DNA of 64,000 nt from Candidatus Kaiserbacteria bacterium CG10_big_fil_rev_8_21_14_0_10_47_16 (GCA_002773395.1 PFBI01000006.1:242797-306796), one strand, 5' to 3'. Shown: positions 6,021-31,658, counted from the first letter of the stretch. Program-made: numbers and translations. The notes: generated from the letters alone by a model not told the origin.

Positions 6021-6418
6021 GGGGATGACAGGCATCGACGGTTAGTCCCGGTAGTATGTGCAGTGTCGAAGCTGATCGTAACTTCGTTAAAATGCGATCA
6101 TTCGTACGTGCTAAGAATAGCGTACCAAGTCCTTACGCGAACGCGTTTGGATTCGCATTTGCTCGAGCGTAAGTAATTACTGCTCGCTCATGCGACATCA
6201 CCCTTTCTGGTATCCGATACAGATTTGGTGGTGAAATAAAAATCGGACTCGAACACGTTACCCCGTTTCCATAATGTGTTTTAAATTCTAAGGAGACTCG
6301 GGGATGTATGATTTTGTGTGTCTTACACATACATCACTTAAATCAAAGGACACTCTACGCACTGTAGAGTCATGCTAACGACCTAGCTCGGACCCGGGTT
6401 CAACTCCCGGCATCTCCA
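6021..6418 (+). ncRNA. ssrA: tmRNA (ssrA), one-piece, about 398 nt, CCA not encoded
   Basis: The 5' end 'GGGGATGACAGGCATCGACGG' matches the tmRNA consensus GGGGNUGA...UCGACGG. The 3' end 'GGACCCGGGTTCAACTCCCGGCATCTCCA' is a tRNA-Ala-like T-arm and acceptor. The acceptor GGGGATG/CATCTCC contains the G3-U70 pair. The gene sits just downstream of smpB. Confidence 0.85.
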
Positions 6419-6454
6419 CATATGAAAATGCTCCCGTCAGGGAGTTTTTTCATA
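6412..6454 (+). repeat. Left copy of a 43 bp direct repeat, overlapping the tmRNA 3' end (att-like)
   Basis: 'atctccacatatgaaaatgctcccgtcagggagttttttcata' is identical to 7415-7457. It also contains the ssrA terminator hairpin. Confidence 0.8.
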
Positions 6455-15281: not shown

Positions 15282-18035
15282 TTACGCGGCGTTCCGCTTC
15301 TCAAAAAAGAACCATTTTGCTACCTCAATGACGATCATAGTAACCAGTCCATAGAGAATAGTGAGCAATACCCATGAGAGTGGGAGTGGTGTGTATGAGA
15401 GGAGCGTTTGCATAAATGGTATTGAAATTGCCACAAAAAGGAGCGCCATACTAATCACAAAGGAACCGAGGAAGAACTTGTTTGTGGTGAATGGAATACT
15501 CCAGAGCGGTACTGAAAGTGCGCGGAATGAAAATGCCATAAAGAGTGAGTCGATAGAAACTGCGAGGAACATGACACTGCGGAGCTGATCAATTGGTAGA
15601 CCTGCTGCAAGCAAGAACGCGTAGAGACCAAGGAGGAGTCCGCTCAATACCACAACGATGAGTGCGATAAACGAGAGCATGTGACGATCCAAGATACCTT
15701 CAGTGTGAATGTCGCGTGGTTTTTCTTTCATGGCGTTTTTGTCCCCCGGCTCAAACGCAAACGCAACGCTCATAAGCCCCTCTTCAATAAGGTTTGCCCA
15801 AAGGATTTGTGCAGGAACGAGTGGCATCGGCACACCCACAACGAGTGCAGCACCGATGAGCACTACTTCCGAGAGACTGGTTGAGAGGAGGTACCCCACA
15901 ATCTTCTGCAGGTTGCGCATGATGCGGCGACCTTCTTCGATAGCTGCTTGGACGATTTCAAAACTGTCATTAACGAGCACGAGATCAGAGGCTTCCTTAG
16001 CAACCTCAGTTCCTGAACCCAGTGCGATACCAATATGCGCTTTCTGAAGTGCGGGAGCATCGTTGATTCCATCACCTGTCATCGCAACGATTTCTCCGTG
16101 CTTTTGGAGAATTTGTGCAAGGCGCATCTTTTGACGTGGCAAAATACGCGCAAAGACGGGCGTCGTCTTAATAACGGTATACAACTCACTATCGCTCAGT
16201 GTTGCAATGTCCTTGCCGGTGAGCGCGATGTCGTGCGGGCGCGCGATGCCCACCGCGCGTGCAATCGTGAGGGCCGTTTCAGGATTGTCACCTGTTACAA
16301 GACGCACGTGCGCGCCCGCTTTCTGCACTGCCTCAATAGAAGCTGACACACCCTTTCGAACCGGATCATGAAACACGATAAGTCCCATGAATGTATTCCC
16401 TGCAATGAGCCCCTCGCCAGAGGCGGTAATGGTGCCGCTTGAAACCTGCCTCGTCCCCACTCCGATCACACGCTTCCCTTCTTTGGTGAGTTTTTCAATG
16501 CGCGCGGCGAATAACGCACGCTGCTCCCGCGTCATTACCACGGCGCCGCGCGCTCCCTCCACATGTGTTGCTGCTTCGAGAATATACTCTGGCGCGCCGT
16601 TAATACACATACGAAAGCCCTGTTCATCTTTAAAGACCCCCGCAGCAAAACGATTCTCTGATGAAAATGAAAGGAAGTCAGAACGTTTTGCCCGCGCACT
16701 CTCGCCCGTTGGCGCAATACCGATATCGAGCGCTGCTTCAAGAATTGCCCGCTCCATCGGTTCGCCGCGTACCACGTACGTATCGAGCGTTTCACTGATT
16801 TCATCCATGAATGCGTCTGACGCACACAGCGCAGTATCAAATATCATTCGACTCGTAACATCGTCTTTCCACTCTTCTGACGAAAGCCCGCCTTCATGTT
16901 CGCTATGAATAATGTGTGTCACTGCCATACGTCCTTCTGTCAGAGTGCCGGTCTTATCGGTAAGGACAAAAGTTGCACTTCCGAGTGTTTCCGCTGCAAG
17001 GAGATTACGGACGAGCCCTCCGCGACGAAGGAGCGCTTCCATACCGACCGCAAGCACAATCGTCACCGCAGCTGGCAATCCTTCCGGAATAGACGCCACC
17101 GCAATCGCGATTGCGGTGATGAGCATTGTACTCACACTCTCCCCGCGCAGGATTCCTAAGGCGAAAATAGCAACGACGAGCACCGCAATGACGATAAACA
17201 TCGCTCGAGAGACTCGCTTCATTTCAAACTGTAGTGGTGTTTCTACACTGAGTACGTCCTGTAGCTCATGAGAAAGTTTCCCAACTTCCGTATTATCGCC
17301 TGTTGCAACCACGACGCCGCTTCCATATCCATCAACGACGAATGTTCCTTTCCATGCCAAGTTGTTCTGCTCTGCAAGCGACGTTCCGACATCGAGGGCG
17401 TCAAGCGCTTTGGTGACCGCGAGCCATTCTCCGGTGAGCGGTGCCTCATTTATCATAAGGTGCTTCGCATCAACAAGGCGCATATCCGCAGGGACCTGCA
17501 CACCGCTTTGAAGAATAACAATATCTCCGGGCACCAATTCACCTGCAAGGATTTCGTGCCGCTTCCCTTCACGGAGCACAAACGCCATATGTACCTGTGA
17601 ATCCTCAAGCTTTTGGAATGCTCGCGAGGCACGACCCTCTTGGAACAGGCCGAGGAAGATTGCGATACAGAGCGCAAAGGTAATGACGGAACCATCCACC
17701 ACATCGCCAATAACAAACGTAATGACCGCAGCGGCGAGCAGGACGAGCGTAAGCGGGTTCATGCACTGCGCAATGAGTCGCTGCAAGAACGTGGTCCCTT
17801 TCTTCTTTGAAAACGCGTTGGCACCATACGCACTGCGACGTTCTTCAACCTCCTTCGGTGTTAAACCATCGACGTCACTGCCAAGCATAGAGAGCACACT
17901 CTGGTACGACTCTGCGTGCCAATTGCGATCTTCTGCCGTGTTGTTGGTGTTGTTCTCTAGTGATTCAAGTGCCGCCATAGCTTGTGATGCATTATTCCCT
18001 GTAGTATAACAATACGTACAGATATATTTCACCAC
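15282..18035 (-). CDS. Cation-transporting P-type ATPase (P2-type, Ca2+/Mg2+-like)
   Basis: Phosphorylation motif 'DKTGTLT', 'TGDN' region, hinge 'MTGDGINDAPAL', 10 predicted TM helices, 917 aa. Confidence 0.9.
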   Translation of the reverse strand: MVKYICTYCYTTGNNASQAMAALESLENNTNNTAEDRNWHAESYQSVLSMLGSDVDGLTPKEVEERRSAYGANAFSKKKGTTFLQRLIAQCMNPLTLVLLAAAVITFVIGDVVDGSVITFALCIAIFLGLFQEGRASRAFQKLEDSQVHMAFVLREGKRHEILAGELVPGDIVILQSGVQVPADMRLVDAKHLMINEAPLTGEWLAVTKALDALDVGTSLAEQNNLAWKGTFVVDGYGSGVVVATGDNTEVGKLSHELQDVLSVETPLQFEMKRVSRAMFIVIAVLVVAIFALGILRGESVSTMLITAIAIAVASIPEGLPAAVTIVLAVGMEALLRRGGLVRNLLAAETLGSATFVLTDKTGTLTEGRMAVTHIIHSEHEGGLSSEEWKDDVTSRMIFDTALCASDAFMDEISETLDTYVVRGEPMERAILEAALDIGIAPTGESARAKRSDFLSFSSENRFAAGVFKDEQGFRMCINGAPEYILEAATHVEGARGAVVMTREQRALFAARIEKLTKEGKRVIGVGTRQVSSGTITASGEGLIAGNTFMGLIVFHDPVRKGVSASIEAVQKAGAHVRLVTGDNPETALTIARAVGIARPHDIALTGKDIATLSDSELYTVIKTTPVFARILPRQKMRLAQILQKHGEIVAMTGDGINDAPALQKAHIGIALGSGTEVAKEASDLVLVNDSFEIVQAAIEEGRRIMRNLQKIVGYLLSTSLSEVVLIGAALVVGVPMPLVPAQILWANLIEEGLMSVAFAFEPGDKNAMKEKPRDIHTEGILDRHMLSFIALIVVVLSGLLLGLYAFLLAAGLPIDQLRSVMFLAVSIDSLFMAFSFRALSVPLWSIPFTTNKFFLGSFVISMALLFVAISIPFMQTLLSYTPLPLSWVLLTILYGLVTMIVIEVAKWFFFEKRNAA

Positions 18036-18038
18036 ATT

Positions 18039-18494
18039 ATGGAACTACATACACAAATTAAAGATCAACTGAAAGAGTCGCTCAAAGCAAAAGACGCGGT
18101 AAAGCTCCAAACCGTACGCAGCATGCTTACCGCCTTCACCAACGAACTCGTTGCAACAGGCAAAAAGCCAAACGAAATGCTCGATGACGCAGGCGTCCTT
18201 TCCGTTATCAAGCGTCTTGCAAAACAGCGAAAAGAATCGATCGTGCAGTACGAAGCCGCTGGTCGCCCTGAACTCGCAGCACCGGAAAAAGAAGAGCTTG
18301 TCATCCTTGAAAGTTACCTCCCTCAAATGATGAGTCGCGAGGAAATAAAGCCAATCGTGCAGGCTAAAATTGCAGAACTCGGAGTCACTGACAAGAGCAA
18401 AATGGGTATTCTCGTTGGGGCCTCTATGAAAGAGCTTGGCGGAAAGGCTGACGGTGCGGATGTAAAGGCGGTGGTTGAGGAGCTCCTCGGTTAG
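18039..18494 (+). CDS. GatB/YqeY domain protein
   Basis: A 151 aa all-helical protein with the YqeY signature and a 'KELGGKADG..VKAVVEELL' ending. Confidence 0.75.
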   Translation: MELHTQIKDQLKESLKAKDAVKLQTVRSMLTAFTNELVATGKKPNEMLDDAGVLSVIKRLAKQRKESIVQYEAAGRPELAAPEKEELVILESYLPQMMSREEIKPIVQAKIAELGVTDKSKMGILVGASMKELGGKADGADVKAVVEELLG

Positions 18495-20953: not shown

Positions 20954-21940
20954 TTAAATAATTGTGACACCTGCCGTTAGTGCAACGTGAATATAAAAGA
21001 GAAGTGCCATCGCTGCCAAGAGTCCCCCACCGTACGCAATCTGAATCGGATGTTGCTTTCGCCACTCCATCACAATTGAAAGAATGAGTGACGCGGCAAC
21101 AAAGAGCGCGAGGAGTGCGTAGAGAATTTGCAACATTGTATTCGGGTTGGTGGCAATGCGGCCAAAGATACCTGCGGCTGCTGTTGGCGCTTCGATACCT
21201 GTTCCGGTGCCAAGCGAGCTGGCTTCTGCGTCGCGAGACGTCGTGGCAAGATCTGAATAGCGTGCAGGAGTATCAGTAGTGTCTCCAAGGGCTTCCGGAG
21301 CTACTGTCTGTGCGGCAGGGATTGCTGTCGCAACAGGCGCTGCGACACTCTCTCCAGCAACTGTCTGTGTTCGAAGTGGTGTTGAGGCTGGTGTGCCGAA
21401 AAACTGAACGACAAATACCGTGTCATATCCTTCGTATGTCCCCTTTGCCGTACCGACACCTATTTCAGTAAAATCGCCGTTTAAAATATTTGCGCGGTGA
21501 CCTGGTGAACTCATCCATGCATCAACCACATCTTCTGAGTCGGTGAAGTACACCGCAAGATTTTCTCCTGCGTGTACGAAGTTGTATCCTGACTCATCAA
21601 ACCAAAACCACGGTGCAACACCTTCAGGAGAGTAGTGCGCGAAGTATCCTTCCTTCGCCATATCGTTTGCTTTTTGCTGTGCAGCCTCATCGAGAACACT
21701 ACTGCGACGCAGTGTACCGACAGCTTCACTGCCCCGCGCTTCGTTTGTGAGGTCGACAATGACTGCAGGCAAAATAGTAGATACCAGCCAGTCAGAACTC
21801 ATCCAGAGAAATGACTGAATGTTCGCGAGCGAAAACGAAATAAGAATCAGTATCGCCATGACGGCAACTGACATTTTCTGCAGAACGTGTGGACGATATT
21901 TGTTTTCTTCACACGGAATGAAGTACGGACGTGGTCGCAT
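20954..21940 (-). CDS. CAP/SCP/PR1-like (YkwD-type) domain protein with TM segments at the N- and C-termini
   Basis: 'GYFAHYSPEG', 'AGENLA' and 'SPGHRANIL' match the CAP-domain motifs of YkwD-like proteins. A C-terminal hydrophobic block follows. Confidence 0.65.
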   Translation of the reverse strand: MRPRPYFIPCEENKYRPHVLQKMSVAVMAILILISFSLANIQSFLWMSSDWLVSTILPAVIVDLTNEARGSEAVGTLRRSSVLDEAAQQKANDMAKEGYFAHYSPEGVAPWFWFDESGYNFVHAGENLAVYFTDSEDVVDAWMSSPGHRANILNGDFTEIGVGTAKGTYEGYDTVFVVQFFGTPASTPLRTQTVAGESVAAPVATAIPAAQTVAPEALGDTTDTPARYSDLATTSRDAEASSLGTGTGIEAPTAAAGIFGRIATNPNTMLQILYALLALFVAASLILSIVMEWRKQHPIQIAYGGGLLAAMALLFYIHVALTAGVTII

Positions 21941-22041: not shown

Positions 22042-23472
22042 CTACACACTCGAATCATCAAAGAAGAGGAGAATGATTGATCCGGCTGCAATCACCACAA
22101 ATGGCCATGCAACACAGAGTATCGGCGTAAAGGAGCCGAGAATCAACACCACGATCGATGCTGCTGCGAAGTAGAGGTTGCGAATACGCGGATTCCACAT
22201 CGGAGAGAGTATGTGGTGTCCTCGGTAATCGAGTACAGTCGCCGCAAGCCACGCAAGGACGAAGACCCACCAGTATGCGCCTGCAAAGCCGAAGTAAATA
22301 CCGAGCAGAACCGCGATTGTGTACAATGCATCAAAGATAACGCCACGGGTAAAGATTCGCGCAAAGAGTGCTGGTGGGTGACGAAGCTTGTCGTCAATCA
22401 CCGTCCAGAGGAATGACATTGCTGCCAAAATGAGAAGCCACCACGGTACGCATGCTGCAGTGTCGGTCATTGCCGATTTCACCGCATCAATAATATTCGC
22501 AGCAAGACCTTCTACGAGACCTTCCGGACTTGCAGTACCTTCATCTCCTGTTGAAGTGCTTGCACCAAGTACATCTCCAAACGGAGCCCCGCCGCCAACT
22601 CCAAAGAAGTTACCACCTGTCGGCAACGTGAAGGTAAGCGCAATGCCCACGGTAAAGTCATCACTAATATCTTCACGCGATGCTGGTCGACATTCATAGG
22701 TTCCCGGTGTAAGACCGGTGAGTACCGCAGTGTGATCCACCACTTTCGCAGTATCTTCACTTACTTCAAACTCATAGCCAAAGAAATCAGATTGATCGGT
22801 ATTGAGAACAAACGGACCGTTCGCTGTATTGCCGCAGACAAGGTACGTCGTCGAATTTCTATTTGTATCCCATGAAAGTACGGCCCCACCAACGTCGGTG
22901 TTTACCACATCTACTTGTTCATTAAAGAGAATGAATCGTGAGCTTCCGCCGCCGCCGCCACCTCCTCCCCCGCCGCCGCAGTCAGTTACACATTCGTTAT
23001 CCGTCACTGAATCTCCACCTTCAAATCCAACAATGAGATCAAATCCCATACTGCTCTTTTGATATGCGTTCCCTGTACTACTATCGAGTGACGCAGTAAA
23101 GGTGTAGGTACGAGTTGCCCCCGCACCGAGCGTTCCGAGTGATACCGGCGTTGCGGCAAAGAAATTGATGAACGTATCGTTGAAGTAGCTTGTCGGTGAA
23201 CTATCGGTAATTGAAAGTTCCATCACATCGGCAAGACCATTGTTTGACGCTTTATCGATAGAGACGTAGACGTTCTCTATCTCCGTACCATTGTTCGTCA
23301 CGACGACCGTACGACTCACACTGTCCCCCGGTGTTACGTTACTGTTGCTAAAGAGTGGCGTTTGCTCAAATACCACACTGAGGGTTGCTGCTTCTGCTGC
23401 AACCGGCATGAATGCGAGCGCGAGAAAAGCGAGCGTAAGAAGAATATGCTGTTGTAGTGTGCGCGTTATCAT
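22042..23472 (-). CDS. Sec-secreted beta-rich protein with a (Gly)12 tract and a C-terminal multi-helix membrane domain; its start overlaps the stop of the upstream gene (ATGA)
   Basis: Signal 'LAFLALAFMPVAAEAA', 'CGGGGGGGGGGGSS' and about 6 TM helices in the last 150 aa. The 4 bp overlap with 23469-25187 implies translational coupling. Confidence 0.55.
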   Translation of the reverse strand: MITRTLQQHILLTLAFLALAFMPVAAEAATLSVVFEQTPLFSNSNVTPGDSVSRTVVVTNNGTEIENVYVSIDKASNNGLADVMELSITDSSPTSYFNDTFINFFAATPVSLGTLGAGATRTYTFTASLDSSTGNAYQKSSMGFDLIVGFEGGDSVTDNECVTDCGGGGGGGGGGGSSRFILFNEQVDVVNTDVGGAVLSWDTNRNSTTYLVCGNTANGPFVLNTDQSDFFGYEFEVSEDTAKVVDHTAVLTGLTPGTYECRPASREDISDDFTVGIALTFTLPTGGNFFGVGGGAPFGDVLGASTSTGDEGTASPEGLVEGLAANIIDAVKSAMTDTAACVPWWLLILAAMSFLWTVIDDKLRHPPALFARIFTRGVIFDALYTIAVLLGIYFGFAGAYWWVFVLAWLAATVLDYRGHHILSPMWNPRIRNLYFAAASIVVLILGSFTPILCVAWPFVVIAAGSIILLFFDDSSV

Positions 23473-25187
23473 ACTGTTTCAGTTATATTTTCAACCGGTG
23501 TTTCTGCAGGAACATCTACTGGTTCTTTTGCAGGAGCCTCTTCGACTACCGGTTCCTCTGCAGGTACTTCCTCTTCTTCAGTCACCGGTACCTCTTCTTC
23601 TGCTACAACCTCCTCCTCTGCTGGAGCAGACTCCTCTTCAGTAGAAGTGGTCGTTTCTTCCGTTGGTGTTGTCTCTTCTTCGACAACCGGTGTTTCTTCG
23701 CTCGGAGTCTCAACACTTTCATCAGATGTTACCACCTCTTCTTCAGAGGTTCCGTCAGTCGGAGTTTCCGTTCCTGCATCTTCTTTCGGAGTAGCTCCTG
23801 ACCCAGTGCCTGCACCATTTGTGGAATCTCCGGAATCGTCACTACTTTCAGTTTGTGTAATTCCTTCGTCTACAACCACAATCTCTTCTGGTTTATTAGC
23901 GTACTCATTTTCAGTATCAGCCGTCTCGTCGTCGACTGGCTCTTCTTCTGTTTCCACAACTGGCTGCACCTTATTCAACTCACCAACCGCGACACCGAGT
24001 GCGAGGAGTGCGAGCTCTTCCTTCGTTAAATCATTCTCTGTATTTGGTATACCTGGTGTTGGAATTGGGTCCACCCATGCACCTATCCCGTCAGGAATAC
24101 GTGCGTATGATTTATTGTCAGGGACTGTTGCTCCCGGAGTGCAGTCGATACCGCCGCCACTCGGAACAGAATTATTGCCACCACCCGGTGTTGGCGTGAA
24201 GTAACAATAGTCGTAGTCACTTGTGTACGCGTACGAATCTTGAAGTACATCACTTGGGTTATAAAGCTTCACCGTATCACCAGTGTTATTCAAGATAGGC
24301 TTATTCATGTACACCACGAGGAATCCGTTTGCTGGAATGGTTGTTGTTGCAGCGTGTGTAAGATCAACATGTATGGTATTCCCCGCACCACCTGATGCGT
24401 CAACGACATACCATCCCGTAAGGTCAATTGCTGCTGCACTGAGGTTATAGAGCTCTACCCACTCTCCTTGTGGCATATCCGCGCTGTCGTTCCCGTAGTC
24501 AAAAATAAAGTCTGGATCCCTTGAGTCACAACTGTCATTCTCAGGGTCACTACAGAGTGGTCCGTGGGGACTTGGGAGGAATTCATTGAGTACGACAGGG
24601 TGCGCAACTCCTTCCGGTCCAGAGTCTTGTGTATTAATCGTAATACGAAGTTTTTCAACATCGAAGAATCCTGAGTTTGCTTGAATATCTACTCCATCAA
24701 GCCACGCACTAAAGATAAGATCAAACGTACATTCAGTATCAACAGGCGCTACAAATCCGTCAGTGACGGTAATGAACGAGTTCCAGAGACCGTAATCATT
24801 TGTCGGCGTTGTATCGGTGAGTGCGAGCGGTCCGCTGTATGTTGTTGTTCCATGTGCTGCATTCAATGAGAGTGCGCTGCAAACAGATTCATCTCCGCTT
24901 ACAAACTCATACGAGAGTGCGTATTTTGCGTCAATACTTCCTGAAACCAATGCAACGTTTGTATCAAATTGTACTTCATCGGCAGGTTCATTCGTAATTA
25001 CCCCTTCAAATTCATTCATTGAGAGTTCGATATCAAGGAAGCCTGCACTCCAACTATTGATACCTCCTGTTTCAGTGTCACTAAAAAACGCAAATGCTGC
25101 CGTCGGTGCAATGAGCGTAACGCAGAGAAGCGCCGCAATCGCTGCGCTTAGGTATGTGGTTACTCGTGTATGTAATATATGTTTCAT
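23469..25187 (-). CDS. SipW-cognate signal peptide protein with a lamin-tail domain (LTD) and a long acidic low-complexity C-terminal tail
   Basis: N-terminus 'TAAFAFFSDTETGGINSWSAGFLDIEL' is a variant of the TasA/camelysin-class signal. LTD motifs 'VVLNEFLP...GEWVELYNLSAAAIDLTGWYVVD...IPANGFLVV'. The C-terminal tail of about 170 aa is Glu/Thr/Pro/Val-rich. Confidence 0.7.
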   Translation of the reverse strand: MKHILHTRVTTYLSAAIAALLCVTLIAPTAAFAFFSDTETGGINSWSAGFLDIELSMNEFEGVITNEPADEVQFDTNVALVSGSIDAKYALSYEFVSGDESVCSALSLNAAHGTTTYSGPLALTDTTPTNDYGLWNSFITVTDGFVAPVDTECTFDLIFSAWLDGVDIQANSGFFDVEKLRITINTQDSGPEGVAHPVVLNEFLPSPHGPLCSDPENDSCDSRDPDFIFDYGNDSADMPQGEWVELYNLSAAAIDLTGWYVVDASGGAGNTIHVDLTHAATTTIPANGFLVVYMNKPILNNTGDTVKLYNPSDVLQDSYAYTSDYDYCYFTPTPGGGNNSVPSGGGIDCTPGATVPDNKSYARIPDGIGAWVDPIPTPGIPNTENDLTKEELALLALGVAVGELNKVQPVVETEEEPVDDETADTENEYANKPEEIVVVDEGITQTESSDDSGDSTNGAGTGSGATPKEDAGTETPTDGTSEEEVVTSDESVETPSEETPVVEEETTPTEETTTSTEEESAPAEEEVVAEEEVPVTEEEEVPAEEPVVEEAPAKEPVDVPAETPVENITETV

Positions 25188-25213: not shown

Positions 25214-25759
25214 CTACTCAGAAGCCTCTTCATCTTTTTTGCGAAACTCTCGCACAAGCGTACGTGCTTCATCAATGAATACGAGGGCTGCCGGGAGAAC
25301 AATGATGAGAATGAAGCCGAGTGGCTTCCGCGCGAAATCAATGATGTGCCCAATGTACGGGATATCAAAGATGACTTCGCCCGTGATCTTCGATGCGGGA
25401 GTCGGCGTAATATCAGCCTCCTCGTTGGCATCACCCTTTGTGGTGTACATCAACTCTCCCTTTGTAATAGTTTCCGCAATAATACGGTGTGTCGTCGGAA
25501 CGCGTGTTTTGGTATCTTCACCAAATGTCACCACATCACCAACGCGGTATGAACCTGTCGGATAAATAAGGACAAGCGCACCCGTTTTTATTGCCGGCTC
25601 CATAGAACCCGATTGGACGATTTTGATTGAGTAGTCTCCAAAGAGCGGTACCTTGGTACCAATGAGAAGTACCCCAATCAGAATAATAAATCCAATAAAG
25701 AATCCGTAAGCTATTTTTGAAAAGAGCGCTGTGTTCATTATGTTCTTCAGGATTTCCAT
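25214..25759 (-). CDS. sipW: Signal peptidase I of the SipW/archaeal-ER type
   Basis: The catalytic Ser box 'VQSGSMEP' is identical to the B. subtilis SipW motif. One N-terminal TM helix and a C-terminal TM/basic tail. Confidence 0.8.
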   Translation of the reverse strand: MEILKNIMNTALFSKIAYGFFIGFIILIGVLLIGTKVPLFGDYSIKIVQSGSMEPAIKTGALVLIYPTGSYRVGDVVTFGEDTKTRVPTTHRIIAETITKGELMYTTKGDANEEADITPTPASKITGEVIFDIPYIGHIIDFARKPLGFILIIVLPAALVFIDEARTLVREFRKKDEEASE

Positions 25760-25798
25760 CCTGACCCCAACCCCCGAGTATTCGGGAGTTGTTCGTCA
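25748..25798 (-). repeat. Intercistronic hairpin repeat copy 2 (aaccccgagtattcggg core), candidate attenuator between the TasA-like gene and sipW
   Basis: About 90% identical to 27799-27849. GC stem-loop flanked by 'ggatttccatcc'. Confidence 0.55.
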
Positions 25799-25805
25799 GA
25801 AAAGA

Positions 25806-27761
25806 TTATTCGAAGTCTGAGATTTGACCGTCAAAGTTGATCCAGTCAACGTAACCAGTTTCACCCGCAGGTCCTGGGTGTCCTACACGTATTCCAAACC
25901 ATGAATCGGTTGATCGTGTTTCTGCGTTTGGATAGTTCGCAAGAATGTCCGCCCATGTACGTGGTGTAGAGCCTGGTGTTGTACCTGTGTTATCTACTGC
26001 ACCTGCTGGCCAATTGCCACCAGAAAGTGTCCACATTCCTGCAAGGGCGTCCACTGTTGTCCATGTATTTGCCGTTACACCAGTTGGAACCTGCACAAGA
26101 CGTCGCTGCCATGTATCAGAATTATCGAAGTCGACGTTGAAGTGCAGATACGGAGTCTCGCCTGAAACTGATCCGTCATACATACGGTATGACAGCGTTC
26201 CAATATCAGAGAGCTTCACGTCGTTATAACGATAGGTCGCGATGTTATAACGTGCAGCAGCCTCATGGAGCACCATCTTTGCTGCTCCTGAACCAGCAAC
26301 GGCTTCAAAGTGGTTTTCACCACCTGAACCACTGAACTGGTCGATGCTCATAACTGTATCGTTGGTGTCATTGTAGAAGAACCATGCGCCACTTACTTTT
26401 GCGGCAACTTTGTCACCTGTTTCAAGATCATCTTCGGCAACTTCATTTTCATTGCCTCCACCATTTTGATCATCTCCAATGTGGATGTTCTCACACTGGA
26501 ATGAACCATTGTTTCGAACTTGCTCTGCGTATGCAGTAAGAGACGCGGTGAATGAATCACTCATTGCATCGTTATGCATCGTTGATCCGTCACAACCGAA
26601 TGCATTATCGATGTTTGCACTGATTGTACCCGCACACCACGCAAGACCAACGTACCCTGTTGTCGTTGCGGTGAGATATTGTCCATTGTCTGAATCGAGA
26701 CTTGCGATACTACCGAGGTTTCCGAGTGTTGATTCTCCAAGAGAAGTTTCACCAGTCTCATATACTCCGTCAGCGTCAGTATCAAGCCATGAGAAGAACG
26801 TAATGTAGTCCTGTAGTTCACCGTCTTGATCATCATCACCGTACTTTGCTTCTGGTTCCATGATGTCGTTTTCCGCATCCTCTCCATCATGTGCAATGAG
26901 ACATGTGTATGCATCGTTGTCGAACACGTGAAGTGAGATAACGTTTGTTCCAAGGTCTCCTGGCTTCACATCATTGAAGGTGAAGAATGTTTGATCCGTA
27001 AGATCTGTCTCTTCCCAAAGTTGGCACTGCCAAACGTCTGAAGGAATGCCATCGATATCTTCATTATCGCAGTGAAGTGCTCGTACCGCATCAAGATCAA
27101 AACCGTCAGCGTCACTGTTATGCAGCGTTGGATCAGTCGTGTCAGTAATACGAACGTAGTAGACCAATGGTGCATTTCCGTCGAGGTCAATTTCGATAGT
27201 CCCGTCAAACGTAACTGATGAAGGACTTACGTCAACAGTCGTCCAGTCAGATCCATTTGGACTTACTTCGACTTTTACACTTTCATCAGGATACGCAGGT
27301 GAAGTTACACCTGTTGCTTCGTAGATTCGGAGATCATCTCCTGGACCGTCATCAATTCCGTCTGGGAAGTGGAGTACGATGCTGCCGCCAAATCCAAGAC
27401 TCACGAAGCCTGTTGGCGATACGTCCGGAGTACTTCCAGATGTATCTGCTGGGCCGGTGGCATCGTCTGGATTACTCCGTCCTGCAAGAACCGCATCTCC
27501 TCCCTTTCGCAATCCTTGGTTGAAAGAAGTTACTTCTTCAGCCCAACGATTACAACGCGTTGTACAGTCTTCGCCGTTATATGTTTGCTTGAGGTGGTCA
27601 ACCTTAAGATCGATAGAACCTGCGGTAAAGATGTTACCGGTTGAAGTTTCTGTATCGTTAAAGAACGCACCTGTTGCGCTAATAACGAGGGCGGCAATAG
27701 CCACAAGAAGGGCCGCGCTGAGTAATAATCGTTTTTTCGTTAAAATCTGGTTCATGGTCAT
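25806..27761 (-). CDS. TasA/camelysin-like (peptidase M73 family) fibre protein, 651 aa, with a SipW-cognate signal peptide
   Basis: 'ATGAFFNDTETSTGNIFTAGSIDLKV' is the textbook SipW-cognate signal. The core 'FFTFNDVKPGDLGT' parallels the TasA 'LKPGD' region. Confidence 0.75.
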   Translation of the reverse strand: MTMNQILTKKRLLLSAALLVAIAALVISATGAFFNDTETSTGNIFTAGSIDLKVDHLKQTYNGEDCTTRCNRWAEEVTSFNQGLRKGGDAVLAGRSNPDDATGPADTSGSTPDVSPTGFVSLGFGGSIVLHFPDGIDDGPGDDLRIYEATGVTSPAYPDESVKVEVSPNGSDWTTVDVSPSSVTFDGTIEIDLDGNAPLVYYVRITDTTDPTLHNSDADGFDLDAVRALHCDNEDIDGIPSDVWQCQLWEETDLTDQTFFTFNDVKPGDLGTNVISLHVFDNDAYTCLIAHDGEDAENDIMEPEAKYGDDDQDGELQDYITFFSWLDTDADGVYETGETSLGESTLGNLGSIASLDSDNGQYLTATTTGYVGLAWCAGTISANIDNAFGCDGSTMHNDAMSDSFTASLTAYAEQVRNNGSFQCENIHIGDDQNGGGNENEVAEDDLETGDKVAAKVSGAWFFYNDTNDTVMSIDQFSGSGGENHFEAVAGSGAAKMVLHEAAARYNIATYRYNDVKLSDIGTLSYRMYDGSVSGETPYLHFNVDFDNSDTWQRRLVQVPTGVTANTWTTVDALAGMWTLSGGNWPAGAVDNTGTTPGSTPRTWADILANYPNAETRSTDSWFGIRVGHPGPAGETGYVDWINFDGQISDFE

Positions 27762-27798
27762 AAATAAAGTTTTATTTTTAGATCAAGTAACGTTATTC

Positions 27799-27849
27799 TA
27801 GGATTTACATCCTGACCCCAAACCCCGAATACTCGGGGTTTGTTCGTCA
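27799..27849 (-). repeat. Intercistronic hairpin repeat copy 1 after the first TasA-like gene
   Basis: 'catcctgaccccaaaccccgaatactcggggtttgttcgtca'. Perfect stem aaccccgag/ctcggggtt. Confidence 0.55.
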
Positions 27850-27862
27850 AGAAATAGTCTTG

Positions 27863-29182
27863 TTAGTCTTGTTCTCCGAGATATTCCCCTGCGATTACAT
27901 CACATGAGAATTGCTCATTATTTCGCTTCTGTACTGCGTATGCAGTCAGAGATGCTGTGTATGAGTCACTTTGGGTGATGTTACCCATAGTCTCCCCATC
28001 ACAATCAAAGTCTGATCCCGCAGTCGCTGTAAGCGTACCTGCACACCATGCAACACCTACGTATGCAGTTGTTGTGGCTGAAAGATAGTCAGTGAGTGTA
28101 TCAAGACTTGCGATACTCCCGAGGTTACCGAGTGTAGTCTGCCCGAGAGCAGTTTCACCATTCTCGTAAATACCATTGCCATTATCATTCCAAGTGAATA
28201 CATCAATGTAATCTTGGAGTTCTCCAGCAGTGTTATCGTCACCAAGGTCAGCCTCTGGTTCAGTTACAGAGTTATCTGCATCTACACCATCATGTGCAAT
28301 GAGACATGCGTATGCATCATTGTCATATACGTGAAGTGAGATGACGTCTGTTCCCAGATCTCCTGGCTTCACATCATTGAAGTTGAAGAATGTGTCTCCT
28401 TCTCCAAGATCCTTTTCTTGCCAGAGCTTACATACTTGCTGGAATGATGAGTCTTCTGCACATTCTTCTGCATCACGATCGATATCAAGCTTGAAGAGAA
28501 GACCTGCTGGATTCTGTGTTACAGGATCTCCTGCAAGTGCTTTGTTGCGAACAACAATCTGGAGGGTGTTTTCACCATTCACCATTGCCCCCATGAAAGT
28601 CGTTTCTTCTCCACCCGTTAGCTGAACAGCAGATCCATAGTTAAACTCTGTAGCGAGTTTATCTACAATAGTGACACCGTTAAGGATAACCTTGTATCCG
28701 TTATCTGCCGCGATGGCAAGATCGAGGTCTACGTTCACTGCTGTTCCATTCCATTGGAACTTATTTTCGAACGTATATTCAACATCTCCTACACTGTCAG
28801 CCGCATTTGGAGCAGTTGCCCAAATCCAGATTGCTGGAGCCAAAGCTGCTTCATTCTGCCACGCAGGGTGTGGAGCTGCTACATCAGTTGCAGGAATTGG
28901 GAATGGTCCCTGGTATACAGCAGCCGCATTTGAACCAACGACCTGTGTTGCTGTAGAACTGAATACGTCTACGCTACATGTCTCACAATCAACATCATTG
29001 TACGTTTGTATAAGGTGATCAACTTTGAGGTCGATAGAACCTGCAGTAAAGATGTTGCCTGTTGAAGTTTCTGTATCGTTGAAGAACGCGCCTGTCGCGC
29101 CGATCACGAGTGCTGCAACAAACACCATCATGCCGAGTGCGAGAAGCACTCGTTTGTTTGCAATAAGTGTTGCAATTTTCAT
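27863..29182 (-). CDS. TasA/camelysin-like fibre protein, 439 aa, paralogous to the 651 aa protein; start at ATG 29182
   Basis: N-terminus 'IGATGAFFNDTETSTGNIFTAGSIDLKVDHL' is almost identical to that of 25806-27761. Shared blocks include 'FFNFNDVKPGDLGTDVISLHVYDNDAYACLIAHDG', 'LGNLGSIASLD', 'GVAWCAGT' and 'YTASLTAYA'. Confidence 0.75.
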   Translation of the reverse strand: MKIATLIANKRVLLALGMMVFVAALVIGATGAFFNDTETSTGNIFTAGSIDLKVDHLIQTYNDVDCETCSVDVFSSTATQVVGSNAAAVYQGPFPIPATDVAAPHPAWQNEAALAPAIWIWATAPNAADSVGDVEYTFENKFQWNGTAVNVDLDLAIAADNGYKVILNGVTIVDKLATEFNYGSAVQLTGGEETTFMGAMVNGENTLQIVVRNKALAGDPVTQNPAGLLFKLDIDRDAEECAEDSSFQQVCKLWQEKDLGEGDTFFNFNDVKPGDLGTDVISLHVYDNDAYACLIAHDGVDADNSVTEPEADLGDDNTAGELQDYIDVFTWNDNGNGIYENGETALGQTTLGNLGSIASLDTLTDYLSATTTAYVGVAWCAGTLTATAGSDFDCDGETMGNITQSDSYTASLTAYAVQKRNNEQFSCDVIAGEYLGEQD

Positions 29183-29477
29183 AAAATAATTTGAGTTACT
29201 TGGTAAAGTTTGATTAATAACCACTCCAAAACACACCTAGAAAAGAACTTCCTTGGATGTGTTCATCATCCCACCATTTAGGTACACGGTGGACAAGTGG
29301 AGGAACTTCAATTGGTAACAAAAACGCGCACAATATATTGTGCGCGTTTTTAATTACGTATGTAGTGAAGTCGCCTCCTGTGTCCATCCTGTCTTCTTCA
29401 TGGTGTTCCTAGTATAGACTCACCATAGTAAGCTGCAACCTTGCAGAGATGTAAAATTTGTTTCGTGATGTAAAAAT

Positions 29478-29519
29478 GAATAGCCTGAAAACCGCACGAG
29501 TGCGGTTTTCAGGCTATTC
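29478..29519 (-). terminator. Strong terminator hairpin (perfect 18-20 bp arms) between the LTXXQ gene and the TasA-like operon
   Basis: 'gaatagcctgaaaaccgcac-gag-gtgcggttttcaggctattc'. Confidence 0.7.
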
Positions 29520-29553
29520 TATACATCACTACTTTTGTTCTATGGTGGGTTGT

Positions 29554-30207
29554 TTATTGATCATCTGCTGACGTGTCAGATGATAGGGCGTCATGGCGTG
29601 GAGCCCCGAACACTGGTGGGAGACCGGCGTCACGGAGGAGCTGGTGGGCCCCCCTGTGATCGCCACTTTGGTTGAGTTCGTACGCTTCGAGAAGCGTATT
29701 GAACGACTCTTGGCTTATCATGTCTTTGAATGGAGCATTCTCTGTTGCTGCAACAAAGGCATCATAATCCTTGTTCGCAAGTGCATTACGGATGGCATCA
29801 CGCACTGCCTGATTCCCTTCTCCGCGAGGTCCAATGTGATTTCCAAACGGCGGAATGTCTATTCCCGCATCTGCAAGTACTTGCTTCGCGGCATCATCAT
29901 TACCTTGCTCATGAAGTGTTCGCGCTTCCGTAAGAGCATCCTTCTGCTCCTCGGTGAGATTAGCAAACTCACCCTTGTGCGGCCGCTGTGACATCATGTT
30001 TTTGGTAACGCCTGCGTCTTGAAGTACTTGTTTTGCGCCGTCGAAGTCACCTGATTCCCGGAGATCACGCGCCTCATCGAGGGCGTCTTTCTGGTCATCC
30101 GTGAGATCTTTGAAATCTGCGTAGGCATAGGAGACACCGAGGACTCCAAAGAGGAGAATCGGTATAACCAGCGCGGCAAATTTTTGATCTCGAGTCAGTG
30201 TGTTCAT
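29554..30207 (-). CDS. Secreted repeat protein with three LTXXQ (Spy/CpxP-like) motif repeats
   Basis: N-terminal TM, then three copies of 'LT(D/E)(D/E)QKDAL.EAR.L.E.GD.D.AKQVL.DAG'. Confidence 0.5.
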   Translation of the reverse strand: MNTLTRDQKFAALVIPILLFGVLGVSYAYADFKDLTDDQKDALDEARDLRESGDFDGAKQVLQDAGVTKNMMSQRPHKGEFANLTEEQKDALTEARTLHEQGNDDAAKQVLADAGIDIPPFGNHIGPRGEGNQAVRDAIRNALANKDYDAFVAATENAPFKDMISQESFNTLLEAYELNQSGDHRGAHQLLRDAGLPPVFGAPRHDALSSDTSADDQ

Positions 30208-30226: not shown

Positions 30227-31087
30227 TTATTTTTGCAAGATGCGAACTCGTACGCGCTCGCACTCATTACTACGCATAGCCGGATCTTTTATTTCACTTT
30301 CTGGTCGTACCCTCTCGAGGAATGCGCTCCGACGGCCGAGCATATCGCTAATTGAGTTTTGTTCATGTGGCAGAAATCCTGGCAAGATAATACATGCGTA
30401 GAAGACATCGTCTGATGTTGTTGCTTGGTAGCCAATCACACGAACCTCCTCAAAGCGTGCAAGCGCATCAAGATCCTTCGGACTCAGGCCAGCAGTATAG
30501 AGCGTCCACTTTGTGCCATTGGTGTCAGTGAAGAGGATCGTTTCTTCTGTAAGTGGCGCGCTCGCGCTTCCGATAAGACGACCTTCATCCGCGTCGTCCC
30601 ACAGTTCTTCTTGAAGCCTGACCACTGATGTATGGAACGGGATACGCTCCCCAACCATAACTTCTATCGTTGATCCCGCACCAATGCCGTAGAGTATTGC
30701 TCCTCCCACGAAGCTGCCACCAATACTCATAATCATCACGATGGTGAGTGAGTATCGATACCCTGTCTTCGTGTGACGAAGGTTGAAGTACCCAAAGAGT
30801 ACCGTGCCCGCAAGAATGCCGATCCAAAGATACGGCAGTACCGTCACAATGAATGTGATCATGTTACGGTGCGTTGCCTCATAGAACTCCCATCCTGCGT
30901 GCTCTGTCGCAAAGGCGGAGGCCGCGAGCGCTGCGCTTCCGATAAGGACCGCCCCGCCCCACAGAGTCCAGAACGTAACGTCGCGCGAGACGAATACCCA
31001 TCGCGCTCGCGGCGAAACAGCATCATCACTGATACGCATCATGACTCTCTGCTTTATATCTTCTGTTGTGTGTTGTGTGCTATTCAT
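30227..31087 (-). CDS. Putative membrane-bound anti-sigma factor (overlaps the ECF sigma gene by 8 bp)
   Basis: Position and 8 bp overlap with the sigma gene, 4-5 TM helices, and a C-terminal extracytoplasmic domain. No recognisable ZAS motif. Confidence 0.45.
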   Translation of the reverse strand: MNSTQHTTEDIKQRVMMRISDDAVSPRARWVFVSRDVTFWTLWGGAVLIGSAALAASAFATEHAGWEFYEATHRNMITFIVTVLPYLWIGILAGTVLFGYFNLRHTKTGYRYSLTIVMIMSIGGSFVGGAILYGIGAGSTIEVMVGERIPFHTSVVRLQEELWDDADEGRLIGSASAPLTEETILFTDTNGTKWTLYTAGLSPKDLDALARFEEVRVIGYQATTSDDVFYACIILPGFLPHEQNSISDMLGRRSAFLERVRPESEIKDPAMRSNECERVRVRILQK

Positions 31088-31658
31088 ACGCTGGATGTTC
31101 TTTGAGTTCTTTGCGGAGGCGGCCTTTGGCTCTGTGGAGGAGCGTGGCCACCGAACCTATGGGTATCTTTAAAATGTCGGAGATCTCGTCATATTCCTTA
31201 TGTTCAAAAAACCGCAAGATGACAACGTCTCGGTATTTATTATCAAGATGACTCACCGCTCTCCCGACAACCGCAGCGTCGAGCGCAGCATCAAAGAGTA
31301 TTTCGCTCCCTTTCTCGGTACTCGCAACAAACGTGAGGATATCCTCACTGTCTGACACAAGGTGTCCTTCGGGACGCACTCGCTTCTTTCGAAACGAGTT
31401 TATGGCTTCATTGTGGGCAATACGATACATCCATGAAGAAAACGACAACGCCGTATCAAATTCATTGAGATTCCGGTACGCTTTTATAAAAATTTCTTGG
31501 AGAACGTCTGCAACATCTTCCTCATCACGCACGCCAAGTCGGCGTACGTATCGTGCGAGCTTTGCTTCATACCGTTCGATGAGTAGGCCAAAGAACTCAC
31601 GCTGATTACGCGCCATTTCCACCAGCTCCTCGTCTGTTTTTATCCCACCAACAGGCAT
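31080..31658 (-). CDS. ECF (group IV) RNA polymerase sigma factor
   Basis: Region 2 'VLQEIFIKAYRNLNEFD...SFSSWMYRIAHNEAIN' and region 4 'EISDILKIPIGSVATLLHRAKGRLRKEL'. Confidence 0.85.
   Translation of the reverse strand: MPVGGIKTDEELVEMARNQREFFGLLIERYEAKLARYVRRLGVRDEEDVADVLQEIFIKAYRNLNEFDTALSFSSWMYRIAHNEAINSFRKKRVRPEGHLVSDSEDILTFVASTEKGSEILFDAALDAAVVGRAVSHLDNKYRDVVILRFFEHKEYDEISDILKIPIGSVATLLHRAKGRLRKELKEHPAYE

Follow-up and report, generated by a model that had tools for sequence, protein, structure and literature searches.

We describe two adjacent genes, A and B, in a 64,000-nucleotide stretch of DNA from Candidatus Kaiserbacteria bacterium CG10_big_fil_rev_8_21_14_0_10_47_16 (GCA_002773395.1 PFBI01000006.1:242797-306796), which we call the window. 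Both encode members of the TasA superfamily by the signal peptide, the N-terminal region, the fold and the linkage to a gene for a SipW-type signal peptidase. The two proteins are mosaics, and the same loop of the common core carries a different lectin-like domain in each. We consider it probable on balance that A and B are SipW-processed subunits of a fibre held together by donor-strand exchange and that they display these different modules on it.

Results

Paralogy and mosaic layout

The pair had been picked out by an earlier reading of the sequence, here called the original prediction, as two paralogous TasA-like genes of unequal length. An open reading frame (ORF) check finds both, with 439 and 651 amino acids (aa), at the place given for them (Table 1). 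The frame of A is open back to a GTG at 29236, and the ATG start yields a normal signal peptide and agrees with the NCBI protein GW943_02390 (439 aa, 100% identical). This entry and GW943_02395, the product of B, are annotated as hypothetical proteins of Candidatus Parcubacteria bacterium.

The two proteins are 45% identical over 451 columns in BLASTP (E 3e-89), a resemblance far beyond chance, and they are paralogues. The likeness comes in two pieces, at aa 1-65 and at about aa 250-430, and the ~185 aa between them are unalignable. Between residues 66-251 of A and 66-246 of B there is no resemblance, so both proteins are mosaics. Without the middle segments, the identity of the cores is 66% across 249 columns. 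Eight cysteines occupy equivalent positions in each protein, and four of the eight bracket the variable segment.

A kinship confined to the signal peptide would have refuted the original prediction. The pairwise alignment finds instead ~250 residues of the mature core at the above identity. The string given as common to both N-termini, ATGAFFNDTETSTGNIFTAGSIDLKVDHL, is indeed found in both, and so is the block LGNLGSIASLD. The remaining blocks that had been quoted match A exactly and are near-identical in B, where they read FFTFNDVKPGDLGTNVISLHVFDNDAYTCLIAHDG, GLAWCAGT and FTASLTAYA. The lengths do diverge as had been said, but the main difference lies in the unlike inserts of ~185 aa at the same loop. 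The extra C-terminal residues of B are also borne out, numbering ~220 (aa 433-651) with 11.9% Gly, 9.6% Thr and 8.7% Asp, and they are beta-rich in the structural model.

The mature N-terminal segments of A and B are identical across 29 residues. Synonymous differences nonetheless occur at 13 of the 31 identical-residue codons of the two N-termini, which indicates selection on the protein. On the same grounds, a recent gene conversion was rejected as the source of this identity.

TasA-like core and N-terminal strand

Both precursors pass the TIGR04088 model of the SipW-dependent signal peptide, with 26.7 bits for A and 25.9 bits for B against a cutoff of 19 bits. The predicted cut between ATG and AFFNDTE leaves Ala-Phe at the P1'-P2' positions, which is TasA-like. 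According to PMC10269814, the Phe at P2' explains the need of TasA for SipW, and Ala-Phe at these two positions makes TasA a poor substrate for the ordinary signal peptidase. Within the window, the SipW-type motif AFF.D.E is found in A, B and the downstream gene C only.

The Pfam family PF12389 (Peptidase_M73, the TasA/camelysin family; gathering cutoff 22.5 bits) matches A with 24.6 bits in a span confined to aa 18-56. After the inserts are removed in silico, the match covers profile positions 11-113 in A (24.7 bits), and B scores 20.4 bits. A natural paralogue without an insert, of 274 aa from the related locus L003, reaches 29.8 bits over profile positions 6-153 of 196.

The alignment of 113 cores matches B. 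subtilis TasA with an hhalign probability of 88% (E 3e-6); the TasA sequence used is identical to PDB 8aur over residues 28-261. The aligned part comprises the signal peptide, the N-terminal strand and the residues up to NLKPGD/DVKPGD. Hence, the variable segment sits in the loop that joins core strands one and two. Direct phmmer searches with A and B against the PDB sequences gave chance-level hits only.

The AlphaFold models have predicted local distance difference test (pLDDT) values of 85.5 for A and 84.2 for B. The B model matches the TasA fibre chain 8aur_A with a Foldseek probability of 0.99 and E 2.4e-3, over 222 columns of the 233 target residues and with a template modelling (TM) score on the target of 0.37. 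Some orthologues of A and B are labelled in NCBI as 'TasA family protein' or 'SipW-dependent-type signal peptide-containing protein'. The TasA-like identity assigned by the original prediction is thus upheld by TIGR04088, the N-terminal PF12389 match of A, the Foldseek match of B and the adjacent sipW.

The most conserved part of the proteins is aa 29-57, with a majority-residue frequency of 0.87-0.90 vs 0.58-0.65 elsewhere. This conserved N-terminal segment is unpacked with pLDDT <50 in both monomer models, and in A the low values span aa 22-47.

Inserted domains and the C-terminal module

A profile of 66 homologues of the A insert matches the Pleurotus lectin structures 6kbj (E 1.6e-5) and 6t1d (E 2.7e-5), and the CBM67 region of the Streptomyces rhamnosidase 3w5m at residues 132-230 (E 0.0028). 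The D160-N161 pair of A, in AADNGY, aligns with AADDRY and ASDDAH of the Pleurotus lectin and SADNVY of 3w5m, and N213 of A corresponds to N228 of 3w5m. Across the 66 aligned family sequences, D160 never varies and N161 is kept in at least 90%. The adjacent acidic dyad at this position in the CBM67-like lectins holds a calcium ion and the sugar (PMC11512411, with a further source in PMC11186620). The A model also matches the sugar-binding jelly rolls of GH2 in Foldseek.

The B insert resembles the discoidin or CBM32 fold. Foldseek gives a probability of 1.00 to the muskelin discoidin domain 4oyu (TM on the target 0.55) and to the CBM32 structure 4a6o (0.61), and neuropilin b1b2 is matched as well. 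The Pfam family PF00754 (F5_F8_type_C) scores 15.4 bits on B (E 0.02), under its gathering cutoff of 28.2 bits, and 26.4 bits (E 8e-6) on the orthologous insert of the protein P0139. In two related loci, a discoidin-like module is appended C-terminally to a core without an insert (L005 6886-8307 and L066 8332-9735). It is inserted in B and appended there, so either position is possible.

The C-terminal module of B has 447 relatives at E<=1e-3 among representatives of 50%-identity clusters, and zero matches in the Pfam and PDB sequence searches. It is often joined to TasA-like cores without an insert, and it turns up in proteins as long as 2705 aa, alongside PG_binding_1, Big (Ig-like), SpaA, DUF11 and cohesin domains. 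That the module might be a second copy of the TasA-like core, as a weak BLAST segment (E 0.008) had suggested, was rejected at an hhalign probability of 0.5%.

Other members of the family carry DUF642/MAM-like inserts or ice-binding-like (PF11999) C-termini, and the 201 core-bearing proteins retrieved represent at least 13 architectures. The A type is the commonest with 117 of the 201, a frequency inflated by the use of A as the query, and the exact combination of B was found once in the same set. Downstream of the operon in the related locus L001, a 977-aa protein (15404-18358) joins an ice-binding-like domain to the CBM67-like module of A, so the modules are common to other surface proteins of the same genomes.

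A conserved operon

The related loci were surveyed in 64 species-representative genomes, each of them labelled as Patescibacteria or recognisable as such, and scanned with local profiles of the core, the two inserts, the B module, SipW, C and D. They cover Kaiserbacteria, Zambryskibacteria, Nealsonbacteria, Campbellbacteria, Vogelbacteria, Buchananbacteria, Nomurabacteria, Moranbacteria and Ca. Microsyncoccus. The order that recurs, in metagenome contigs too, is one to four TasA-like genes followed by SipW, a C-like gene and a D-like gene. The linkage to sipW is kept in 61 related loci, the C-like gene follows sipW in most of them, and the place of the D-like gene at the end of the operon is conserved.

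At least two full TasA-like paralogues are encoded at 45 of the 59 non-redundant loci. The usual pair in the relatives is a paralogue without an insert and then an A-type gene adjoining sipW. The window is atypical in having an A-type and then a B-type gene, and within its 64 kb no insert-less TasA-like copy was found.

Hairpins at the subunit boundaries

The hairpin reported after the shorter, first gene exists. A nested stem-loop forms in the 105-nt spacer behind A (-29.5 kcal/mol, z -3.9), and another forms ahead of sipW, in the spacer that follows B (-24.7 kcal/mol, z -5.1). The two stem-loops are 85% identical over 54 nt, exceeding the coding sequence in this respect, with one compensatory change from A-U to C-G. 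Neither has a U-tract.

Behind the stem-loop of A stands GGGGTCAGGATGTAAATCCT, a decayed version of the sipW ribosome-binding site and start, which read GGGGTCAGGATGGAAATCCT at sipW itself, with ~22 further similar bases; the stretches concerned are 27805-27856 and 25745-25799. It follows that the 3' end of the subunit gene, the hairpin and the 5' end of sipW were duplicated as one unit. This duplication came with the rise of the second subunit gene.

The junction of the last subunit gene with sipW is strongly folded in 46 of 61 related loci, with medians of -26 kcal/mol and z -4.4, the z-scores at the related loci being taken against mononucleotide shuffles. The junctions between paralogues are short and unstructured, with a median gap of 36 nt and z -1. 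The stem-loop is a conserved boundary feature between the subunit genes and sipW, whichever paralogue is last. It is a reasonable inference that it probably keeps the expression of the subunits above that of the downstream genes sipW, C and D, and it is uninformative on A relative to B.

The original prediction read the hairpin as the usual mark of a major subunit ahead of a minor or adaptor subunit. This part is not supported, as the hairpin recurs behind B without a U-tract in either copy and stands before sipW in the relatives. Nor is a major subunit in front the usual arrangement in the namesake system, since B. subtilis has tapA-sipW-tasA and its major subunit comes at the end (PMC9245690).

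SipW, C and D

The product of sipW passes TIGR02228 with 103 bits against a cutoff of 51.85, and the SGSMEP and THRI motifs are visible in it. The equivalog model of the Bacillus SipW, NF046067, gives 111 bits, under its cutoff of 190. Thus, the peptidase is SipW-like in type and is not the Bacillus equivalog.

The N-domain of C matches the A/B core with an hhalign probability of 97.8% (E 7e-13), and by this profile comparison C is a third TasA-like paralogue. Its lamin-tail domain is assigned by LTD PF00932 (E 2e-14). The tail of 170 aa contains 27% Glu and 15% Thr, and the whole protein has a net charge of -97.

Gene D overlaps the end of C by 4 nt. Its hydrophobic segments lie at residues 338-476, and its poly-Gly linker has 11 residues with mixed GGN codons. 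The protein is a candidate membrane anchor or platform. Weak matches to DUF11 (E 2.5e-4), to PF12389 (E 0.008) and, by hhalign, to TasA (probability 66%) are the ground for a speculation that D may be a TasA-like anchor acting as acceptor only.

Flanking genes and the leader of A

The strong terminator upstream of A makes the cluster from A onwards probably its own transcription unit. Farther upstream and in the same orientation lies a gene for an extracytoplasmic function (ECF) sigma factor (31080-31658, minus strand), overlapped by a gene for a 286-aa membrane protein (30227-31087, minus strand), possibly an anti-sigma factor. This pairing was not seen upstream of the operon in the loci L001 or L003. 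Just downstream of D, a 328-aa protein with a CAP domain (cysteine-rich secretory protein family) is encoded at 20954-21940, and the loci L001 and L002 likewise encode a CAP protein downstream of their operons.

The leader of A is 370 nt long (29183-29553) and has two very stable hairpins. The first is the terminator hairpin at 29478-29519 (z -9.5). The second, a palindromic hairpin of an A-run and a T-run (29327-29346), lies inside a larger fold (29290-29400, z -8.4), and a mini-ORF of 15 codons (29354-29401, MKKTGWTQEATSLHT) stops just before the second leader hairpin. With its mini-ORF and hairpin, the leader resembles a leader-peptide attenuator.

A search of the hairpins and the long leader for Rfam-type RNA families gave none above threshold, the Leu_leader match at 29318-29380 being at chance level (E 0.12). 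A sigma-70 promoter scan upstream of A and B found no convincing site, and the number of sites was not above that in shuffles. The window also contains a tmRNA gene (6021-6421, 111.7 bits) and a tRNA gene (345-418), which are unrelated to the finding.

Table 1. Coordinates of the genes, protein segments and stem-loops in the window
Feature	Position	Strand	Description
Gene A	27863-29182	minus	439 aa from ATG; TasA-like subunit with inserted CBM67-like domain
Gene A, aa 1-65	28988-29182	minus	signal peptide (~aa 1-30), conserved mature N-terminal strand (AFFNDTETSTGNIFTAGSIDLKVDH) and first core strand
Gene A insert, aa 66-251	28430-28987	minus	CBM67-like lectin domain, bracketed by Cys66/69 and Cys241/251
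Gene A, aa 252-439	27866-28429	minus	remaining TasA-like jelly-roll core, 66% identical to the B core
Stem-loop after A	27806-27856 (inner stem 27819-27842)	minus	followed by relic of the sipW start: ATG 27808-27810, TAA
Gene B	25806-27761	minus	651 aa; TasA-like subunit with inserted discoidin-like domain and C-terminal module
Gene B insert, aa 66-246	27024-27566	minus	discoidin / F5-8 type C / CBM32-like domain
Gene B C-terminal module, aa 433-651	25809-26465	minus	unnamed beta-rich surface module; motifs WFFYNDTNDT, RYNIATY, FNVDF, SDTWQRRLV
Stem-loop between B and sipW	25761-25799	minus	3' arm overlaps the GGGG/AGG Shine-Dalgarno-like bases of sipW
SipW-type (archaeal/ER-type) signal peptidase I	25214-25759	minus	181 aa; 46 nt downstream of B
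Gene C	23469-25187	minus	572 aa; SipW-type N-terminus (AFFSDTETGG), TasA-like N-domain, lamin-tail domain, Glu/Thr/Pro-rich acidic tail
Gene D	22042-23472	minus	476 aa; ordinary signal peptide, beta-sandwich N-domain, poly-Gly linker, ~four C-terminal transmembrane helices
217-aa secreted repeat protein	29554-30207	minus	upstream of A; closed by the 19-bp terminator
Terminator hairpin	29478-29519	minus	19-bp stem followed by T-run; fold z -9.5

Discussion

In the fibre model that we favour, the SipW-type peptidase encoded next door would cut both precursors before AFFNDTE. The freed N-terminal strand would then insert into the beta-sandwich of a neighbouring subunit, and repeated donor-strand exchange would build an extracellular filament. 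Donor-strand complementation is known for the TasA fibres (PMC9674648) and the archaeal bundling pili (PMC9245690). Indirect evidence for it here is that aa 29-57 show the highest conservation, although both monomer models leave them unpacked. With identical strands and 66%-identical cores, A and B could co-polymerise.

The jelly-roll core would serve as the scaffold, with the loop after the first core strand carrying the CBM67-like domain in A or the discoidin/CBM32-like domain in B. Such a fibre may present several domains of sugar-binding type along its length, together with the C-terminal module of B, and act as a multivalent adhesin. Gene C would be a candidate initiator or tip, and gene D a candidate anchor.

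The paralogy, the mosaic layout, the TasA-like core, the SipW linkage and the conservation of operon and hairpin are shown here. Polymerisation is argued from sequence and monomer models, and co-assembly, anchoring and the role of the hairpin are likewise deduced. Sugar binding, which for the A insert may depend on calcium, is suggested by the folds and one motif. Several results weigh against the model. Sequence similarity to TasA proper is limited to the N-terminal third, about the first 65 aligned residues in hhalign. On whole B, PF12389 scores 17.3 bits and stays under its cutoff.

On the same side, TasA is absent from the top 50 Foldseek hits of the A model; the insert dominates this list, and the whole-model search of A was set aside as an uninformative test of the core. 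The survey of loci was seeded with A-type motifs, and its frequencies are biased to loci that bear the A type. Moreover, the identity of the donor segments is equal within and between genomes (0.59 vs 0.57, and 0.74 vs 0.74), so it gives no co-evolution signal for the co-assembly of A and B. Within-genome co-evolution of the donor strand was therefore rejected as evidence.

The place of A at the head of the operon, with a stable stem-loop behind it, would also suit an abundant major subunit, with B as a minor or adaptor subunit (tip or adhesin) lowered by read-through attenuation at that stem-loop. We regard this as fairly unlikely, since a near-copy of the hairpin leaves the same mark on both genes, neither with a U-tract, and the structured element of the relatives lies before sipW and not at their paralogue junctions. 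The extra modules of B do fit a specialised adhesin, and the A type is the commonest architecture where that of B was found once. However, the count is raised by the choice of the query, and the A-type gene of most relatives is paired with an insert-less paralogue that is an equally possible major subunit.

It is unlikely that A and B are monomeric secreted or cell-surface lectins with a TasA-like fold and a dedicated SipW-type peptidase, and not fibre subunits. The top conservation falls on a mature N-terminal stretch of 25-30 residues, which the monomer models leave unpacked, and recognition of the cleavage site alone hardly explains this; the operon also keeps several paralogues and a membrane protein, as other fibre systems do. 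Each protein nevertheless has a complete lectin-like domain, and the polymerisation that separates the two views is itself deduced. Recombinant TasA, moreover, can be a folded monomer, as in the crystal structure 5of1 (PMC5879678).

The sole Pfam family match of the core is named Peptidase_M73, Camelysin metallo-endopeptidase, which would make A and B secreted metalloproteases with carbohydrate-binding modules for substrate targeting. This is highly improbable, as the PF12389 match spans the signal peptide and the first strands with no catalytic motif, and the profile scans of A and B detected no metalloprotease family or motif.

The fibre model can be widened to the Paceibacteria/Parcubacteria at large, tentatively and with more doubt than belief on our part. 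There, the TasA jelly roll would be a modular display scaffold whose cysteine-stapled loop and C-terminus take interchangeable modules (CBM67-like, discoidin/CBM32-like, DUF642/MAM-like, ice-binding-like and the unnamed one of ~200 aa). Subunits with a common donor strand would co-polymerise into a mixed, multivalent lectin fibre that is initiated or capped by C and anchored by D, and this fibre would be a main organelle by which these host-dependent, ultrasmall bacteria attach.

A large part of bacterial diversity falls to the Patescibacteria. Most of them seem to live fixed to other cells, and their means of attachment beyond type IV pili are largely unknown. The operon, with its multiple TasA-like subunits, SipW, lamin-tail paralogue and membrane protein, is conserved as five genes in at least 64 species-level genomes. 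With swappable lectin-like domains on its subunits, it is a candidate adhesive fibre that is concrete and open to test. A and B are good candidates for the adhesive fibres by which these tiny symbiotic bacteria might attach to surfaces or hosts.

The fold of a fibre subunit here tolerates the insertion of a whole domain at one loop, which is relevant to the evolution of donor-strand fibres and to the engineering of TasA fibres for display. In the literature searched, the link between TasA and Patescibacteria is limited to a taxonomic mention of PF12389 proteins in one sentence (PMC9245690). The same literature contains no description of whole lectin-like domains nested in a TasA core or of the combinatorial set of modules, and none of a conserved five-gene operon with lamin-tail and membrane partners or of a conserved hairpin before sipW.

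Comparison with known systems

The TasA/TapA/SipW system of B. subtilis (tapA-sipW-tasA; 8AUR) resembles the present one in the SipW-type signal peptide, the Ala-Phe after the cut and the N-terminal strand ahead of a jelly-roll core, with the high Foldseek probability for B noted above. Both have a dedicated signal peptidase of archaeal type and more than one SipW substrate per operon. Unlike TasA, the core of A and B is broken by a lectin-like domain of ~185 aa, and B is further extended by its module. The subunit genes here come first and then sipW, in a Patescibacteria host, and a TapA homologue is lacking, its place being taken by a lamin-tail paralogue together with a polytopic membrane protein.

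The sipW-tasA-calY locus of B. cereus likewise encodes two paralogues of the TasA family beside sipW, and both are considered to contribute to the same fibres (PMC4292775). Its TasA and CalY (camelysin) are single-domain proteins of similar lengths, whereas A and B differ by whole domains inserted or appended. AbpA of Pyrobaculum calidifontis AbpA/AbpB is a distant pilin of the TasA superfamily with donor-strand complementation, and its operon encodes a larger accessory protein proposed as an initiator or adhesin (PMC9245690). In contrast to A and B, AbpA is a plain jelly roll without a dedicated SipW, and no insertions of lectin domains are described for it.

The A insert shares the position of the AAD(D/N)xY dyad with CBM67 and CBM67-like lectins, namely the SaRha78A module in 3W5M and the Pleurotus ostreatus lectin (6KBJ, 6T1D). 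Their modules are appended to a glycosidase or form a free tandem lectin, whereas that of A is nested in the fold of a fibre subunit.

The chaperone-usher pili are donor-strand-exchange polymers too, in which FimH and PapG have a lectin domain fused to a pilin-type domain, and their operons have stem-loops behind the gene of the major subunit. The likeness to A and B is a functional analogy, as the fold and the assembly machinery are unrelated and neither chaperone nor usher is present here. In those pili the lectin is borne by the tip subunit only, whereas here each subunit type bears one.

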